DNA of 64,000 nt from Octopus vulgaris. Taxonomy: Eukaryota. Shown here piece by piece: positions 6,747-60,065 of the stretch. The stretch spans positions 54,374,001-54,438,000 of the forward strand of contig OX597821.1 in the NCBI GenBank assembly GCA_951406725.2, read 5' to 3'. A program made the translations under genes and the position numbers. Position 1 is the first letter of the stretch. Each line of letters opens with the position of its first letter. A model generated the notes under the pieces. It was not told the DNA's origin. It saw only the letters and a list, made by a program, of their open reading frames with translations, and made no database searches.

Positions 6747-6748
<2 letters not shown>

Positions 6749-6923
6749 ATATCTGACTCACTAGAAAGAGCAGTTAAAACTCCAAGCCACCAAATGTTGT
6801 AATTCCGAAAGTGATTGGAAAATAAAAACTTTTACTTTAATCCTTTTATTTTCCAATCACTTTCAGAATTACAACAATTGGTGGCTTGGAGTTTTAACTG
6901 CTCTTTCTAGCAAGTCAGATACC
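6747..6923. repeat. Inverted-repeat cassette (~80 bp arms) abutting (TA)n
   Basis: 6747-6827 is the near reverse complement of 6844-6923, with a ~16 nt spacer. Confidence 0.9.
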
Positions 6924-6924
6924 C

Positions 6925-15579: not shown

Positions 15580-16508
15580 ATCTGGTAGACTCGCAAGGCT
15601 CCTCTTCCAAAATTCACTTGTTCATGACAAAAAATATTCCTCCAGTTGTGTTCTGACCTCATATAAGGAATTTTTTCTATCCAAATGATTTTGAAGACTG
15701 TGAAATAAATGATAATCAGATGAGGCAATGTCCAGTGAATATGGTGGGTGGGCCATCATTTCCCATTCAGACTGCTCTAGCTTTTAGAATGTCATCATCA
15801 CTTTTCGTCCTCAAACCAAAGATGGTTGTTTAACTACTAGCGCTGACTTAAGCCACTCAAGGTACTTGCAGTAGATCACCTTTGTTATTGTTGGGTTTGG
15901 ATTTAAATGTTCAAAGTAGAATAAGTCTTTCATATCCTACCAAACAGATAACAACACCTTATATGGGTTAAAACCTTCTTTAGCCTGGGATGCTAGTGTT
16001 TCTCCTTTCTCTATCCAGTCTTCGGTGCTTGATATTTTTATAGAGAACCCATTTCTCACCTCCAGTCATTATTCGGTCCAAAAAAGAGAGGTGACAGCAA
16101 AGAAGAGCACACATTCATTCTGTATGCATGATTAGACTCGAAAAGATTGTGACAAATGCATTGACCCAATTTTCTGACTTTTCCAATGGCACACAGGTGT
16201 CGATGAATGGTTGAATGACCAAATCCAAGCTTTTCTGCTAGTTCCTCAACATTTACAATGGGATTTTGTTCCACCAAGGTTTGAAGGACATCCTCATTAA
16301 ACTCTTCAGATATTCCAGGATGAGGCTTGTTTTCTAGGCTGTAGTTTTTAGCTCGGAATTTCTGGAACCACCGTTGACACTGGCTTATGCCTATTATCCG
16401 ATCACCATATACTGCATTAACATTTCTCATACTTCTCACTGCATTGTTGCCCTTATTGAACTCATAAAGCAAAATATGCTGAATATACTCCTTTGCCACT
16501 TCCACTTT
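15580..16508 (-). pseudogene. Mariner transposase pseudogene (Hsmar1/cecropia-like)
   Basis: ORF 16056-16505 has LLYEFNKG...CQRWFQKFR...ELAEKLG..HSTIHRHL..IGKVRKLG. Downstream HPPYSLDIASSDYHLFHSLQNHL matches the mariner YSPDLAPSDYHLF motif. Confidence 0.9.
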
Positions 16509-17180
16509 GAAGGGTATGCATTTGCAATCCAGGAGCAGGAGATATCAACCAAGTATCTGATGCATGAAAGGGATAGAGTTACAGGAAAAGCCATAAAATG
16601 TAACAGCCAATGCAGAATTTGTGGAGTTCACACTGAATATATCACCCACATTATAAGCAGTTGTCCGAAAATGTCATCACGGTATTATCTACTGATGAGA
16701 CATGACGTTTTAGCTCGGACACTATAATGAAATCCATCAGAAAGATAATCCTGAGGACAAAGAAATAAGAACCAACAATATGGTAGAAGCCATAGTCACT
16801 CATAATAAAAAGGGATACTGGTGGAATGTACCAGTGAAGACCTCAATAAAGTTTAAGCACAACAGACCTGATATAATGATTTGGGATAGAGAAGAGAAAC
16901 TGTGTACAGTTGGGGAAATCAGCTGTCCAGTGGATGTTTGCATAGAGTTGAAGATCAGTGAAAAAGAGAAAAGCTAAGCTGAACTGTCCAGATTACAAGT
17001 TCAGGTTTATACCTGTAACTATGGGGGCCTTGTGATATGTAGCACACTGCCTAAATACCAATCTTGAGAAATTAGGCTTCTCAAAACCAGAAAGAAGAAA
17101 GCTAATTTGAAGACAACAGATCCAATCCATCACTGGAACTGTAAAAATTTGTAAAACTTTCCAGAAGTTTTCTTTTAAAT
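16509..17180 (+). mobile_element. R4/Dong-type LINE 3' fragment (CCHC finger and restriction-like endonuclease), decayed
   Basis: EGYAFAIQEQEI...CRICG...HIISSC...RHD and HNRPDIMIWD...GEISCP. Confidence 0.8.
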
Positions 17181-25849: not shown

Positions 25850-25898
<49 letters not shown>

Positions 25899-25900
<2 letters not shown>

Positions 25901-26336
25901 AATGAAGGATAACATTTTTTCGAAAAAAAATATATTCTTTTTCAAAAAAATTTTATCAATGGCCAGCATATCAAAAAATACCTTTAAAGGTTAAATCTAT
26001 AAACAATTCATAATTAAGGGCAAACGAAAAAATTTCTAATGCCAGATATGCACATATTGTCCATTAACCATAATTTTTTCACAATATGCACGCTACTCGA
26101 AAAAAGGTCGACAGAAATTTCTAAAACATTCCAATGTATCACTGACGAAGGGAGGGCTGTTATAAGCTAACCCTGAAATCGGTCCGATATGGTAATAATG
26201 AAATGTTTTAGAAATTTCTGTCAACCTTTTTTCGAGTAGTGTGCATATTATGAAAAAATTATATGGTTAATGGACAATATGTCCAATTTTTCGGCATATC
26301 TGGCATTAGAAATTTTTCGTTTGCCCTTAATTATGA

Positions 26337-26341
<5 letters not shown>
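25899..26341 (+). mobile_element. Hairpin cassette in (TA)n: tail + ~130 bp inverted arms around a hammerhead ribozyme (Penelope pLTR/retrozyme-like)
   Basis: 26003-26130 is the reverse complement of 26202-26341 apart from one ~13 nt indel. The loop holds a hammerhead core and (TA)n lies on both sides. Confidence 0.8.
26131..26192 (+). ncRNA. Minimal type I hammerhead ribozyme
   Basis: TATCA-CTGACGA-AGGG...CCCT-GAAA-TCG-GTC-CGATA: intact core, stem II AGGG/CCCT, GUC cleavage triplet, stem I TATC/GATA with a mismatched closing pair. Confidence 0.75.
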
Positions 26342-26371
<30 letters not shown>

Positions 26372-32645: not shown

Positions 32646-33279
<634 letters not shown>

Positions 33280-33343
33280 TCATAATCATCATCATCATCA
33301 TCTTTTAACGTCTGCCTTCTATGCTAGCATGAGTTGGACGATG

Positions 33344-33419: not shown

Positions 33420-36400
33420 CTAGTTTCAGCTTATGAGCTGTGGCCATGCTGGGGCACCGCCATTTGGTGTCGCTACTTGGTTTCACTTCATGGAGGCTTT
33501 CTAGCAACTGCTATTTGGTGCATGAGAGAGTTCGATGCAGCTGCCCTCATCTGCCCCTCCTGCCGTGAAGTTGGTTCATCTGGGACACCTGACAGGAAGA
33601 GATCCAGCTTCATTTTAAAGACATCTGTATCCACCCCATGCAGGTCTCTCAGGTTCTTCGGGAGGATATTGAAGAGCTGTGGGCCTCGGAAGCCCAGGCT
33701 ATCACAGAATCTTGTCCTACATCTTGATGGCAGGTTTGGAGTCCTAGGCACCACGCAGTGGCGCCCAGTTCTGGCATTTGCGTAACTCTCGATGCCAAAG
33801 TTCAGGACACTTCCTCCAGGATCTTCCAGATGTATATTATGGCATATCTTTCCCGCCTACGCTCCAGGGAATATAATTTTAATCTCTTGAGTCTTTCCCA
33901 GTAGCTTACATTCTGCATAGAGGCTATCTTCTTTGTGTAGCTTCGTTGAATCGCCTCAAGTTCTGTGATCAACTTGACACTGGATGGTGACCATAGCTGA
34001 GAGCAATAGTCAAAGTGGCTTAGGACAAGTGTCTTCCAGAGGACCATCATGGTTTCTTGTTCTCTTGTTCTAAAGGTTCTAAGAATCCATCCAGCCAGCC
34101 GTCTACATTTCATTGTCAGTTTAGCAACATGTACATGAAAGGTCGCGTCATCACTCATGTGAATACCCAGGTCACGCACTGATTGTGCCTCTGGGATTGC
34201 AATCCCTCCGGGTCCAGTGTATTCATTGGGTATTGCATTCAGTTTTGCATGCTGATAGTATAAAGCTTGAAACTTTCCAGCATTGAACTGCATGCTATTC
34301 TTTTCAGCCCACTTGTATATTTCGTCCAGCTCACATTGCAGGTGTTTAGTGTCCTCAGGGTTCTGTATTGCCTGTGAAACTTTTGTATCATCTGCATAAC
34401 TTGTGATCGTGGCTCTCTGCGTGGCTGAGGGCATGTCTGAGAGGGCCATTATGAACAGTAGTGGTCCCAGAACAGTGCCCTGCGGAACACCGCTCACTAT
34501 TTGTGTGTTAATGGAGGTGGCCCCATTGGCTACTACCACCTGACTTCTATCCTTCAGAAAGTCATGAAGCCATTCTCCCAGTTTTCCAACTATGTTGAGA
34601 TCACGCAGTTTGTGACATATCATTCCATGATCGACTTTATCAAAGGCCTTTGCAAAGTCGAGATATATCACTTCCACATTTGAGTGGTTGAGCAGCCGTT
34701 TCAGCACCCAGTCATAGTGTTGTAGGAGCTGAGTTAAACAGCTTCTCCCTGGTCGGAAACCATGTTGGGTGTCGGGCAGCAAGTCATTCTCTTCAAGGAA
34801 GGTGATCAGCTTCCTTCTGACTATTCGTTCCATGACCTTGCTGATGTGTGAGGTCAGAGAGATAGGTCTATAGTTCTTGGCTTCCGCTCTGCTACCTCCT
34901 TTATGAATGGGGCATATTTTACCTTCCTTCAGTTTTCCTGGAAGTTTGCCAGCTGCAAGGAAGCTCTGAAAGAGGAACTGCAGTGGTCTTGCTAGGACTC
35001 TCTTACATGCTTTTAGGAGGATTGCCGGGAATCCATCGGGGCCAGTAGCTGAGTCTGTTTTCATTTCATCTATAGCCTTGGTTACATCGTCTTCCTTTAT
35101 ATCGATGTAATCTATCGTCGCCGCCTCTGATTTTATATCTGCAGTGGTAAAAAAAGTCAGTTGGATTGGTGATTTGGAGATGCCCAAGGGGTGGAGTGAA
35201 AACACTCTTGAATTGCTCATTCAGTATTTCACTTACCCTCATTGGTTTTCCTGTAAGTGTGCCATCCTTTTCGAGGAGTGGCCCTATTCTACAGTGCACT
35301 GTAGCTGTTTCTTTGGCATACCTGTAGAAAGCCCTGGGGTTAGATTTTATGTTTTCTATAGCCCAGGCTTCTTTGTCTGCTCTTTCTTTTCATGGGAGAG
35401 TTGCAGACATTTTTCGATTTCCAACAGTTTTATTTTTAGGCGGGACTTTTCACTGCTTTCAATCTGTTTGTTTAGGCGATTTGAAAATTTCGTACGCCGT
35501 CTCATTAAAATTTTCCTCTCTCTGGGGATTTTGTTCTTGTGTACAGTGGCCTTTCTCTCTGGGACACATTTGTAGCATATGGCTTGCATTACAGACATGA
35601 ATTGTTGGAGTTTCACGTCGATGTCTGGCGAGGAGAGACATTTAGGCCAGTTTTGTTTGAGGATCTCTTTCTCAATTTGTTTCCAGTTTGCCTTATGGTA
35701 GTTCAAGCTGGAAAGATTTTGAGGGTTTCTTGTAGGCTGCATGTCCGTGCTCTCTTTTGGCCCGTACATGGTCAGCTCTATCATGTTGTGATCCGAGAGT
35801 AGTGTCGGTGTCACTTTCACATTATGGATGAGATCCATGTCATTTGTGAAGCAGAGATCCAGTGTGTTACCTGCCCTGGTTGGTTGGAGTATTACCTGCT
35901 CCATGTACAGGGTGTTGATGAGGTTCAGGAGGGACCTCGCCTGTCCTCGTTCACATCTTGTCATTCCTGGGAGAGAAAGGCCCTCGGGCCATCTGACATT
36001 GGGCAGATTGAAGTCTCCCATAAGAAGCACACCTATGTGTTGTTCTAATGTGGTTAGAATTTCTTCTATTTTTATAAGGCAGTCTTCAAACTTGCCCACA
36101 TGGCTTGGGGCATCTGGAGGGCTGATATGTAGCACACACAACTACATCAAGTTGCCTAATATGTACAATTAGTGTGTCACACACCGAGTTTGAGTATGAC
36201 AAGAGGACCTGGGATGTGAGGTCCTCACGGATGTACATAGCAACACCTCCATGACTCCTTTCTTTCCTGTCGGTCCGTAGTACAGCATACTGTGGTATGT
36301 GTAACTCCGCATCTGCTATGTCCGGTTTCAGGTGCGTTTCTGTAAGTGCTATGCATATGGCTTGATTGCATGCAACAAAGTCTCTCAGGAACGGGATCTT

Positions 36401-37872: not shown

Positions 37873-38165
37873 TTCATGATAGAATATAAGGAGAAAAATC
37901 ACGTTAATGATCTTTATCAGGTAGTCAGCATGCTATAAAAATTTATAGGTAATTTATGCATTAAATTAATGTACATATGTTTATAACTATATTAAGGGAG
38001 CAAAGGCAAAAAACGACCTATCTTCAGCATGCTTTAAGTGCCGAGACCTTCAAAAACCTACAAAAAACAGGTAGTTTTTTAAAGGTCTCAGTACTTCAAC
38101 CATGCTGGAGATAGGTCGTTTTTGCCCTTGTCTTAATATAATTATATACACATGTATATTATTAA
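37873..38165. mobile_element. Hairpin cassette (tail + ~95 bp imperfect inverted arms) between TA-rich tracts
   Basis: ~37966-38060 pairs with ~38070-38165 (GGCAAAAAACGACCTATCTTCAGCATG / CATGCTGGAGATAGGTCGTTTTTGCC). Confidence 0.75.
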
Positions 38166-38287: not shown

Positions 38288-40727
38288 ATCATCATCATCA
38301 TCGTTTAACGCCCGTTTTCCATGCTAGCACGGGTTGGACAGTTCGACCAGGGTCTGAGAAGCCAGGGGCTGCACTAGGCTCCAGTCTGATCTGGCAGTGT
38401 TTCTACAGCTGGATGCCCTTCCTAACGGCAACCACTCCGCGAGTGTAGTGGGTGCTTTTTACGTGCCACCGGCACAGGGGCCAGGGGAGTCTGGCATCGG
38501 CCACGATTGGTTGGTGCTTTTAACGTGCCACTGGCACGGAAGCCAGTCGAGGCAGCGCTGGCATCGGCCACGTTCGGATGGTGCTTTTTATGTGCCACCG
38601 GCACGGAAGCCAGTCGAAGCGGCGCTGGCATCGGCCACGTTCGGATGGTGCTTTTTATGTGCCACCAGCACAGAAGCCAGTTGAGGTGGTGCTGGCATCG
38701 GCCACGTTCGGATGGTGCTTTTTACGTGCCACCGGCACAGGTATCACAACTACTATTTCCATTGATATTTATTTCGATGTTCATGTACTTGACTCAATAG
38801 GTCTCCTCAAGCACAGTGGGATGTTCTGGAATCCAAGGTACTTTGAATGGGCAGGGACTATGCGGGACTGGTGCAGGAAGCAGCCCGGGTCTTTGCAGTC
38901 ACAGCATATCTCCAGAGATCTTGGTCCTTCGCCATTGCCTCTGTGAGGCCCAACGCTTTTAGGTCATGCTTGACTACCTCATCCCATGTCTTCCTGGGTC
39001 TACCTCTCCCCCTGATACCTTCAACTGTTTGGGAGCGGCACTTCTTCACACATCTCTCCTCATCCATCCGCAGTACATGACCATACCATCACAAGCATCG
39101 CTCTTGCACACCACATCTGATGCTTCTTATGTCCAGCATTTCTCTCAGGTGCTTACCTCTGTCGTGCACGCACACTGACATTACACATCCAGCGGATCAT
39201 GCCTAGCTTCATTTCTTTCAAGTCTACGCATGTCCTCTGCAGTCACAGCCCATGTTTCACTACCGTGAAGCATGGCAGTTTGCACACATGCATCATACAA
39301 TCTACCTTTCACTCTGAGCGAGAGACCCTTTGTCGCCAGTAGGGGTAGGAGCTTTCTAAACTTTGCCCAGGTTATTCGTATTCTAGTGGTGACACTCTCT
39401 GAGCATCCACCTCCACTACTAACTTGGTCACCCAGGTAGCGGAAACTACCAACTACTAGTTTCTTCCCTGGCGTGTGATGGATTCTGTTTTCTGAGTATC
39501 TGTGGTGTCTATTGTCCCTGTGCATCTGCCGCACATGAAAGCTATCTTATCAGTTAATTTCCCTTTGATGTTGCTGCACCTCTTATGCATCCATAGCTTA
39601 CACTTGGTACATCTTATGGAGTTTCTACCTACATCTTTCCTACAGATCGAGGAGGGCCACCTGCCCAAGGGTGTGTGTGCTGAGTTCGCCTTTCTGCTTA
39701 CTATAACTTTGGTCTTTGCTACATTTACTCTAAGGCTCTTTGATTCTAACCCTTGCTTTCACACCTGAAATTTCTTTTCTAGTTCCGGTAGTGATTCTGC
39801 TATGAGAGCCAAGTCATCAGCATAGAGAAGCTCCCAGGGGCAACCTGTTTTGAATTCCTCTATTATCGCCTGGAGGACTATGATGAATAAAAGGGGACTG
39901 AGGGCTGATCCTTGGTGTACACCTACTTCTACCCGGAATTCTTCACTATATTCGTTGCCAATTCTAACCTTGCTGACAGCCTTTCAGTATAGGGCCTGTA
40001 CAGCCCTTACTAGCCATTCGTCAATCTCCAGTTTCCACATCGACCACCAGATAAGGGATCAGGGGACCCTGTCAAAGGCTTTCTCCAAGTCTACAAAAGC
40101 TATGCAGAGGGGTTTATCTTTAGCTAGGTACTTCTCCTGCAGTTGTCTGACCAGGTATATAGCATCAGTGGTGCTTCTACCCGGCACAAAACCGAACTGC
40201 ATCTCATCTAAGCAAATTCTCTCCCTAATGAGATGGGTTATGACCCTCTCTGAGACCTTCATCACCTGATCCAACAGTTTAATACTCCTGTAGTTATTTC
40301 TATCTAGAGCATCACCCTTACTCTTGTAGCAGTTGACTATAGTGCTGCTACGCCAGTCATTGGGTATGACTCCATTATGAACTACCTGATTTAAAATGCG
40401 GGTGACTAGGCCATAGCCCACATAACAAGCTGTTTTAAGCATTTCAGCAGTGATTCCTGATGGGCCTGAGGCTTTACCTGGTTTCATACCCTTAATTGCC
40501 TTAACTACAAGGGAGCTGTCTATTCGGATAGCTGGTCCCTCTACTGGGTCAACATTTGGCAGGCTCTCCTCCTCCCATTCATTCTCCACATTCAGCAGTC
40601 TTTCATAATGGCTTCTCCAAGCCTCTTTCTTTCACCATCATTAAAAGCAAGTGCCCCATCATCCATGCGGACACATTTCTCTCCTGTAACATCACTATTT
40701 TCTCTCACACACTGTCTAGCAATCCGA
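38288..40727 (-). mobile_element. 5'-truncated RTE LINE (RT domain, 3'UTR repeats, (GAT)n tail)
   Basis: QFGFVPGRSTTDAI, AFVDLEKAFDRVP, GVHQGSALSPLLF, LLYADDL and MLHGSETW. Possible TSD ATATATCATCATCA at ~38284 and ~40733. Confidence 0.95.
38452..38742. repeat. 67-nt tandem repeat in the RTE 3'UTR
   Basis: GTGCTTTTTA(C/T)GTGCCACCGGCAC units start at ~38452, ~38514, 38581, 38648 and 38715. Confidence 0.9.
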
Positions 40728-48516: not shown

Positions 48517-48593
<77 letters not shown>

Positions 48594-48868
48594 TTGTTAT
48601 CGCCATATTAATATGGCAGTCTTATAGATATAAGACTAAAAGCTGTCGCTGATTAGCTCCATGAGGCCATCACCTTAAGATAGCTATTTGACACACAAAC
48701 TGTGTCCATTATAACCTTCGAACAAGGAGCTAATCAGCGACAGCTTTTAGTCTTATATCTATAAGACTGCCATATTAATATGGCGATAACAATTAATTTC
48801 CAGTAATGCTGCCGTAATCTCTTTTAGAGAGACTTAGTAATTTTAATATTTCTATTATATATATATTG

Positions 48869-54700: not shown

Positions 54701-54710
<10 letters not shown>

Positions 54711-55020
54711 TTAGAGACAAAACCACTATTTTGCAAAACAAACAAGGAAAGACTTAATCAATACATAAAATTTTAATAAAAAGTAAAAAAACCGCCACTA
54801 CAATTGTTTCATGTCCTCAATGACAATCTTCAGGTGGATTTCCGATTTTCAAATCAGTTTATTAAAATTTTATGTATTGATTAAGTCTTTCCTTGTTTGT
54901 TTTACAAAATAGTGGTTTTGTCTCTAATTAATATTATATAATATTTTACTATAAAATTGGATTTAATCCTAAATCTGATTTTTTCCCTGTAAATTTGGAT
55001 TTATTCCCTAATATTTATTA
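54701..55020 (-). mobile_element. Hairpin cassette in (TA)n with a hammerhead ribozyme in the loop
   Basis: Arms 54701-54780 and 54858-54937 are near-perfect inverted repeats; the tail is 54938-55020. Confidence 0.85.
54795..54837 (-). ncRNA. Minimal type I hammerhead ribozyme
   Basis: CCAC-CTGAAGA-TTGTC-ATTGAG-GACAT-GAAAC-AATT-GTA-GTGG: stem I CCAC/GTGG, palindromic stem III ACAATTGT, GUA triplet. Confidence 0.8.
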
Positions 55021-55290: not shown

Positions 55291-55306
<16 letters not shown>

Positions 55307-55548
55307 ATATTAGGGAATAAATCCAAATTTACAGGGAAAAACTCAGATTTAGGATTAAATCCAATTTTATAGTAAATTAAATTAAAACAGATTAGGAGAT
55401 CGAAAATCCATCTGACGAATGTCATTGAAGACATGAAACGATTGTAGTGGCGGTTTATTTCTTTATATTAAAAATTTTTATGTATTGATTAAGTCTTTCC
55501 TTGTTTGTTTTGCAAAATAGTGGTTTTGTCTCGAATTAATATTATATA

Positions 55549-59198: not shown

Positions 59199-60065
59199 CT
59201 ACATATGTGGAAAATTCTGTGTGTGTGTGTGTGTGTTTGTGGGGTTGTTAGCTAACTCCTACATTGTTTTATCAATTCTGATGAAACTTGACACATGAGT
59301 AGAATTCGTGTCTGGAAACCTCATGGCAGACTCAGATTGTTGAAAAAATTCAGCAGTAGGGCCCCTCGAAAGGATCCTTATATATCTAATATATTTCATT
59401 TTAACAGTCAAGGGAAATAACCTATTCGCCCAGATTTTAATAGACAAGGGAAATAACCCATTCATTTTCCTAAATCATTTGGTATAAATCAAATTGAGTA
59501 TGCTTATTTCTTAGTTTTTGAGCTGTTAGAGTTATTTTCACAATTTATGCAGTACAACCCTTAAACAAGTAAATAATTATTTCTTTTACTTGTTAAAATA
59601 ATTATTTCTTTTAGTTGTTAATATAAAATATATTAGTTATATATAAGGATCCCTTCCAGGAGCCCTATTATCGATTTTGTTTCAACAATCTGAGTATGCC
59701 ATGAGGTTTCCAGACATGAATTCTACTCAAGTTTCATCAATAAAATCAATAAAATGATGTAGGAGGAGTTAGCTAAGAACTCCGCAAACAAATACACCCC
59801 CAGACAGAATTTCCCATATATGTAGTATATATATATATATATATGTCTATATTTGTGTGTCTGTGTTTGTCCCACCACCATTGCTTGACAACCAATGTTG
59901 GTGAGTTTACGTCCCTGTGACTTCATGGTTTGGCGATAAAAGAGACTGATAGAATAAATACTAGACTTACAAAGAATAAGTCCTGGGATCGAAATGTCTG
60001 ACTAAATGCGGTGCTCCAGCATGACTGCAGGCAAAATGACTGAAACAAGTAAAAGAACAAAAGAA
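58906..60065 (+). mobile_element. SINE family B with a duplicated head, split by a foldback element
   Basis: Heads at 58906-59030 and 59031-59165; the 3' half is at 59845-60065. Confidence 0.8.
59198..59827. mobile_element. Foldback/MITE with long (~200 bp) imperfect terminal inverted repeats
   Basis: TACTACATATGTGGAAAATTCTGT...GAGTAGAATTCGTGTCTGGAAACCTCATGGCA...GGATCCTTATATA is mirrored at 59640-59827. Confidence 0.85.

Follow-up and report, generated by a model that had tools for sequence, protein, structure and literature searches.

Endonuclease-positive Penelope-like elements (PLEs) and the hammerhead ribozymes of metazoan PLEs are the described systems closest to the octopus locus treated here. 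In the published accounts, PLE insertions are described as containing an inverted pLTR, which stands head to head with the direct one and is shorter at its 5′ end; one of the inverted pLTRs may in addition bear a tail of 30-40 bp on its 3′ side (PMC3846280, PMC8557442); pLTR and tail together often include the start of the ORF (PMC11167929, PMC3846280). From in vitro work on a PLE of Anolis it is reported that both DNA strands are cut and extended, that uncleaved RNA is the main template, hammerhead cleavage not being needed, and that the tail corresponds to the stretch between two internal start sites of reverse transcription (PMC11167929). Targeting of (TA)n is described for Naiad and Hydra and a microsatellite bias for Neptune, and Naiads are characterized there as being without canonical hammerheads (PMC8557442). 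Low in vitro activity has been reported for metazoan PLE hammerheads, the role of which is still regarded as open (PMC8557442, PMC11167929). Their majority consensus has an extra nucleotide after A9 and a G10.1-C11.1 pair (PMC4209133). According to the supplement of that paper, the hammerhead of the D. willistoni PLE has an A10.1-U11.1 pair, a long palindrome as helix III, and AUA as the triplet, while that of Marsupenaeus japonicus has no extra nucleotide, A10.1-U11.1, and an A at position 17; the closing pair of stem I is paired in all 44 alignment rows examined by eye, and the published descriptor demands this pairing (PMC4209133 supplement). Natural hammerheads with AUA are known from viroids (PMC1636495).

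The window analyzed in this study is a stretch of 64,000 nucleotides of the Octopus vulgaris genome (assembly GCA_951406725.2, contig OX597821.1, positions 54,374,001 to 54,438,000). Microsatellites are dense in this AT-rich animal DNA, remnants of LINE and mariner elements are present, and its common short repeat resembles what is presumably an octopus repeat. At 25899-26341, a 443-nt element is found, in which the order is (TA)n, a 104-nt tail, an inverted arm, a loop with a hammerhead motif, an arm, and again (TA)n. The two microsatellites, which are the presumed target, are located at 25850-25898 (TRF period 2, 24.5 copies) and at 26341-26371 (TRF period 2, 15.5 copies, 100%); a target-site duplication is not discernible at the (TA)n flank of the insertion. 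On the minus strand, the one-sided 3′ tail of the inverted copy (25899-26002) is followed by the inverted, 5′-truncated arm copy (26003-26133), which does not include the hammerhead and is recognized by its identity with 26199-26341. The tail has no partner in the right arm and is unpaired with the arms; folded alone, it reaches -18.9 kcal/mol, and its own A/U-rich hairpin (25908-25957) is located at the end adjoining (TA)n. On the plus strand, the inversion junction, and with it the approximate start of the direct copy, is placed at 26134-26136 by the joints in other family copies. It is followed by the type I hammerhead motif (26137-26194) and by the arm of the direct copy (26199-26341), the 3′ part of a putative pLTR, which ends at (TA)n. 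The arms (left 26003-26133, right 26199-26341) pair over about 130 bp, with four substitutions (126 of 130 aligned columns identical) and with gaps of 11 and 2 nt and one extra nucleotide, all in the left arm; the hairpin loop spans 65 nt (26134-26198). The 443 nt fold at -209.8 kcal/mol, versus -76.6 +/- 4.7 kcal/mol for shuffles (z -28.6; 0 of 100 as good). The arm alignment, the fold, and the TRF analysis bear out the architecture proposed in a first-pass annotation of this DNA, namely, unpaired tail, arm′, ribozyme, arm, and (TA)n. The loop letters given there are present, too, at 26137-26189. No frame is open through the arm from the hammerhead, and all frames of arm plus tail contain stops. 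A second copy of the element was not found elsewhere in the window.

The locus most likely represents a single, dead-on-arrival insertion of the pLTR of an endonuclease-bearing PLE, or of a non-autonomous derivative mobilized by the enzyme of such an element. Such an RT/GIY-YIG protein would nick the (TA)n tract on both strands, and reverse transcription would start at two internal sites of one uncleaved RNA, the proximal one at the arm end and the distal one about 100 nt further, at the tail end. Head-to-head joining of the two 5′-truncated cDNAs would yield the arrangement (TA)n - tail′ - arm′ - hammerhead - arm - (TA)n. In this view, the hairpin would be a by-product of insertion and not a ribozyme scaffold, and the hammerhead would be the usual passenger of the pLTR, weak or locked as a monomer; cutting, most likely after A26189 (AUA), would require either protein help or a double hammerhead formed within tandem pLTR transcripts. 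Three features of published PLE insertions are found at the locus: an inverted 5′-truncated copy head to head with a direct copy, with variable junctions in other copies; a one-sided 3′ tail, though its length is outside the published range; and a microsatellite target, with (TA)n on both sides. That the hairpin is independent of the ribozyme follows from four other (TA)n fold-backs in the window, which have no hammerhead core. A GIY-YIG domain was not matched in 74 of the 118 window ORFs of at least 90 aa, which were scanned against Pfam (the other 44 are mostly simple-repeat frames); two RVT_1 matches are located 7-14 kb from the element. Since no PLE coding sequence is linked to the element, its membership in the PLE class rests on structure.

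The long, near-perfect inverted repeat within TA, together with the several other fold-backs near (TA)n that do not contain a hammerhead core, would also be expected of a MITE-like fold-back DNA transposon with long terminal inverted repeats, a TA target, and a spacer that resembles a hammerhead by chance. This origin is very improbable, because the inverted repeat is not terminal but is preceded by the one-sided tail of 104 nt, the arm length differs among copies instead of the ends being fixed, the core is invariant while loop II varies, and matches to the hammerhead descriptor are rare in shuffles.

The preferred PLE reading extends to a second hammerhead family in the window. The first-pass annotation had regarded the element as unrelated in sequence to the 54-55 kb family, though of the same design, and had ascribed this to a shared integration mechanism. 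Both observations hold: there is no blastn match at E<1e-3 (best pieces E>=0.36), and the architecture recurs at 54704-55010, with a shared insertion mechanism as the likely reason. As the design is that of published PLEs (PMC3846280, PMC8557442), this mechanism is most likely ordinary PLE insertion rather than a new one. The window contains two copies of the second family, separated by about 600 bp and oppositely oriented, at 54704-55010 (minus) and 55294-55542 (plus); the family has an 8-nt palindromic stem III, a GUA triplet, an A-U pair closing stem II, and A17. The former copy comprises tail, inverted arm, hammerhead, and arm, while in the latter only an inverted tail precedes the direct copy. 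Its double hammerhead is predicted at -19.4 kcal/mol, versus -13.6 kcal/mol for two monomers. The four fold-backs mentioned above abut or lie near (TA)n at 6747-6924, 32646-32896 (with an inverted piece at 33277-33342), 37967-38161, and 48590-48796; they are mutually unrelated by blastn and may be PLE ends with a deeper truncation or ends of the Naiad type. An inverted pair of about 190 bp, 80% alike, with (TA)n near both sides, is present at 59236-59788; it contains CTGATGA but is not matched by the hammerhead descriptor. The Pfam scan further revealed, all on the minus strand, a LINE remnant with APE endonuclease and RT (33802-36141), a second RT fragment (40059-40631) followed by a same-strand PHD finger frame (39456-39758), and a Mos1-type transposase HTH (16056-16544).

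Part of the element is present in 20 of the 24 sequencing runs listed (four organism labels, 10 studies). Contigs aligned to 25899-26200 were obtained from all of four runs, numbering 3238, 2555, 1797, and 100, and are mostly less than 99% alike. The family is dispersed and of high copy number in at least three organism labels. In other copies, inverted arms ending at 25976, 26051, or 26072 are joined to 26134/26135; there are four joints to this site with differing inverted-arm lengths. In 25 contigs of run X3 and four of run X9, the copy terminates where the arm meets (TA)n. Varying arm lengths and stops at the arm end would be expected if truncation occurred anew at each insertion. The family has two 3′ ends, the arm end and the tail end, and in other copies TA runs occur at loose ends. 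The depth drops at 25938-25945, with many loose ends starting before these positions, and the present copy appears to have additional nucleotides near 25923-25943 which are absent from most members of the family. Both arms share three alleles which are in the minority in three DNA-like runs, the share of the other letter there being 93-97% at 26014, 97-99% at 26045, and 87-98% at 26087; in run X9, which is possibly of RNA and for this reason was disregarded with respect to transcription, the allele of the window predominates at 26087. The shared minority alleles are consistent with both arms having been copied from one template; conversion between the arms could be an alternative source. At the proximal 3′ end of the family, the element reads TATA (25998-26003), and therefore junctions with (TA)n share up to four letters in other copies; in the present copy, only one letter is shared. 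Microhomology priming is a possible interpretation of this sharing. The loose ends upstream of stem I (26134-26141) in other copies are pyrimidine-rich. No splice acceptor is readable in these upstream loose ends, which are of low agreement; for Penelope of D. virilis, an intron is described as ending at helix I.

The positions of the junctions have a bearing on the nature of the transposed RNA. The distance from the start of the direct copy to the core is 8 nt in the present element, about 9, 11, 13, and 35 nt in the four other junctions listed, and 27-32 nt in the two copies at 54-55 kb; the element contains no open frame. This would fit a retrozyme- or SINE-like PLE derivative, self-transcribed and mobilized in trans, the RNA of which would be non-autonomous, short, and of fixed size (about 300 nt, beginning 10-35 nt upstream of the hammerhead and ending with the tail), and not a random truncation of a full-length PLE; retrozymes have indeed been described as non-autonomous PLE derivatives, solo monomers included (bioRxiv 10.64898/2026.07.22.740005). 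We consider such an origin unlikely. The clustering of the junctions is biased, since the element was selected for an intact hammerhead and only joints with short inserts were counted, 351 loose ends being outside this count. Further, the unit is not repeated in tandem in the window, none of the 12 joints listed leads from tail to hammerhead, and the sequence upstream of stem I in the loose ends of other copies is unlike the tail end. Published retrozymes, by contrast, are described as carrying canonical hammerheads in tandem (PMC7229834), and head-to-tail units, each with a hammerhead, are not found at the 25899-26341 locus. Truncated insertion of a PLE pLTR, or of a derivative moved by the same enzyme, remains the preferred reading.

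The hammerhead core is formed by CTGACGA (26142-26148) and GAAA (26175-26178) and spans 26142-26178. With a descriptor combining the core, stems I and II, and a self-complementary stem III, composed after the motif had been seen, three cores were matched in the window (26142 on the plus strand, 55412 on the plus strand, and 54833 on the minus strand); in 100 block-wise dinucleotide shuffles, the mean was 0.05 matches and the maximum 1. By sequence and folding, the motif at 26137-26194 has the elements of a type I hammerhead, that is, CUGANGA, GAAA, NUH, and three helices. It is not recognized by the Rfam hammerhead covariance model: the window gave no Rfam match at the gathering score, and the 24 matches obtained at E<=10 do not include a hammerhead family. 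The miRNA-like Rfam matches were set aside, as they reflect the hairpin and the TA runs.

Family conservation was assessed from the substitutions at positions varying at >=4% of depth in four runs (24 rows; two indel rows are not included, and rare variants are dropped by the contigs). None of the 24 rows falls in 26134-26161 or 26167-26200, and at this level variation in the hammerhead region is confined to 26158-26166; the motif annotation of 26137-26194 rests on the descriptor, folding, and family invariance outside 26158-26166, and its cleavage is a prediction. Stems I, IIa, and III are all invariant. G26166>A, the sole stem change listed (43%, 30%, 33%, and 7% of depth, by run), breaks a distal stem II pair, and a compensating change at 26157 is not among the substitutions listed. 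Only the proximal 4 bp, AGGG/CCCT, therefore constitute a constant stem II, and the long stem II assumed at first is not supported as a family trait, its distal pair being broken in 30-43% of depth in three runs. The core, GTC, and proximal stem II are kept at the 4% level, and a hammerhead-type motif in an independent multi-copy family is thereby supported rather than refuted. Stem III had been read as ATCGGT, which is indeed one substitution from the palindrome ACCGGT; the family consensus had been expected to restore ACCGGT and the closing pair of stem I. No variant row exists at 26141, 26179, or 26185; with A26141, T26179, and C26185 kept, the consensus restores neither. Decay of ATCGGT from ACCGGT was rejected, since family variants at >=4% never restore the latter. 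The summed contig depth is high in the tail and low in the 5′ half of the hammerhead, with no drop at either predicted cut site; as it is not a copy number, it was not used as evidence.

On this core, the descriptor gave two registers. The early one, which was that of the first-pass annotation, has the 6-nt palindrome ATCGGT with two G.U pairs as stem III, an A.C pair closing stem I, and a GUC triplet with the cut after 26184. In the late register, stem I is TATCA/TGGTA (26137-26141/26190-26194) with an intact closing pair, stem II is 26149-26152/26171-26174 with a variable distal part (26155-26158/26165-26168), stem III is the 11-nt palindrome ATCGG-T-CCGAT (26178-26188), and the triplet AUA (26187-26189) places the predicted cut after 26189, five bases past the previous site. 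Every junction position is paired in the late register without sequence changes, and the monomer can form the full three-way junction at -11.7 kcal/mol. The palindromic helix III of metazoan PLE hammerheads is matched by a stem III self-duplex of -13.9 kcal/mol, versus -3.1 kcal/mol in the early register, and the double hammerhead is, with -37.3 versus -28.5 kcal/mol, more stable by 8.8 kcal/mol. The initial fold is probably mis-registered, and the cut is more likely to occur after 26189 than after 26184. That the early register is functional, with the A.C pair being tolerated, is rather unlikely. GUC is the commonest natural triplet, ATCGGT is self-complementary when wobbles are counted, and the helix 26136-26140/26186-26190 has a pairing probability of 0.90-0.96 in the monomer; this helix, however, is part of an inactive fold that buries the core, and the A.C mismatch is invariant across the family and hence does not represent decay. 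Covariation does not distinguish between the registers in the four runs at the 4% level, both being invariant. Within the late register, an A10.1-U11.1 pair without an extra nucleotide is favored (-11.7 versus -6.4 kcal/mol), and the variant of stem II with an extra A and a G.U closing pair was rejected as less stable. In its departures from the majority consensus, the late register resembles the D. willistoni and Marsupenaeus japonicus PLE hammerheads, the triplet AUA being that of the former.

The minimum free energy fold of the monomer (-18.2 kcal/mol) has the core buried, with 26141-26145 paired with 26179-26183, and the pairs of the late register have a probability of about 0 in the monomer ensemble. 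Two inactive monomers amount to -36.4 kcal/mol, versus -37.3 kcal/mol for the late-register double hammerhead; the best two-strand fold, at -40.2 kcal/mol, is inactive, too. A more specific scenario would be a mini-PLE, in which a short non-coding RNA has its 5′ end fixed just upstream of a self-locking hammerhead. The monomer would be held in an off state by the pairing of 26141-26145 with 26179-26183 and released only as a dimer cutting at AUA, and this design, along with hairpin tails of 70-100 nt and TATA-microhomology priming on (TA)n, would be common to two families of one genome that are unrelated to each other. We regard this scenario as quite unlikely.

Relatives were also sought beyond the octopus. 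Viral contigs gave no match to a degenerate hammerhead pattern and metagenome contigs none to an exact 22-mer. With a degenerate pattern of core plus palindrome, 106 matches at 103 loci were obtained in metagenome contigs, six of them with a stem II of at least 4 bp and none with a late-register stem I. Two metagenome loci which passed a loose early-register filter are dissimilar to the element by blastn and were taken as chance matches. As judged from the papers listed, a literature search yielded no report on such hammerheads in octopus; the word "hammerhead" does not occur in the available portion of the 2026 repeat annotation of O. vulgaris (PMC13282606). Because no paper on octopus hammerheads was found, the family may be undescribed, though its class is well known; the repeat libraries of PMC8557442 and PMC13282606 might already include it. 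The result adds one hammerhead-bearing PLE terminal-repeat family and a corrected predicted cut site. With its thousands of variant contigs, its two registers in competition, and the off state predicted for it, the family is a convenient test case. Should 5′ ends truly cluster at the ribozyme, template definition would be linked to the hammerhead itself or to a start or splice site close by.

Summarizing, the octopus element resembles endonuclease-positive PLE units (PMC3846280, PMC8557442, PMC11167929) in its head-to-head repeat with a 5′-shorter inverted copy, its one-sided tail, the hammerhead within the repeat, a microsatellite target without discernible duplication, and a high copy number. 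Unlike in these units, no ORF is seen in or linked to the element, and arm and tail are not spanned by an open frame; the tails, 104 nt at 25899-26002 and about 70 nt at 54942-55010, are longer than the published 30-40 bp. The (TA)n-targeting, hammerhead-bearing clades Neptune or Hydra would fit best. With metazoan PLE hammerheads (Cervera and de la Pena 2014, PMC4209133; also the Aedes aegypti and Saccoglossus rows), the motif shares type I topology, an intact CUGANGA/GAAA/NUH core, a short stem I without loop contact, and a stem III whose palindrome would allow a double hammerhead; its A10.1-U11.1 pair and its A at position 17 recur in the D. willistoni and shrimp rows of the same work. It differs from them in its odd 11-nt palindrome, which would leave a central U.U in the dimer and a GUC triloop in the monomer, and in a stem II composed of 4 bp, a 2x2 internal loop, and a variable extension, and from the majority consensus in having neither the extra nucleotide after A9 nor G10.1-C11.1. 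Non-LTR retrozymes (PMC7229834; bioRxiv 10.64898/2026.07.22.740005) are likewise non-coding and AT-rich, with a type I hammerhead, a unit of a few hundred bases, and a probable PLE origin; unlike these, the octopus element has an inverted arrangement with a tail in place of a head-to-tail tandem at 25899-26341, and its hammerhead does not possess the canonical 6-bp helix I with loop contact.
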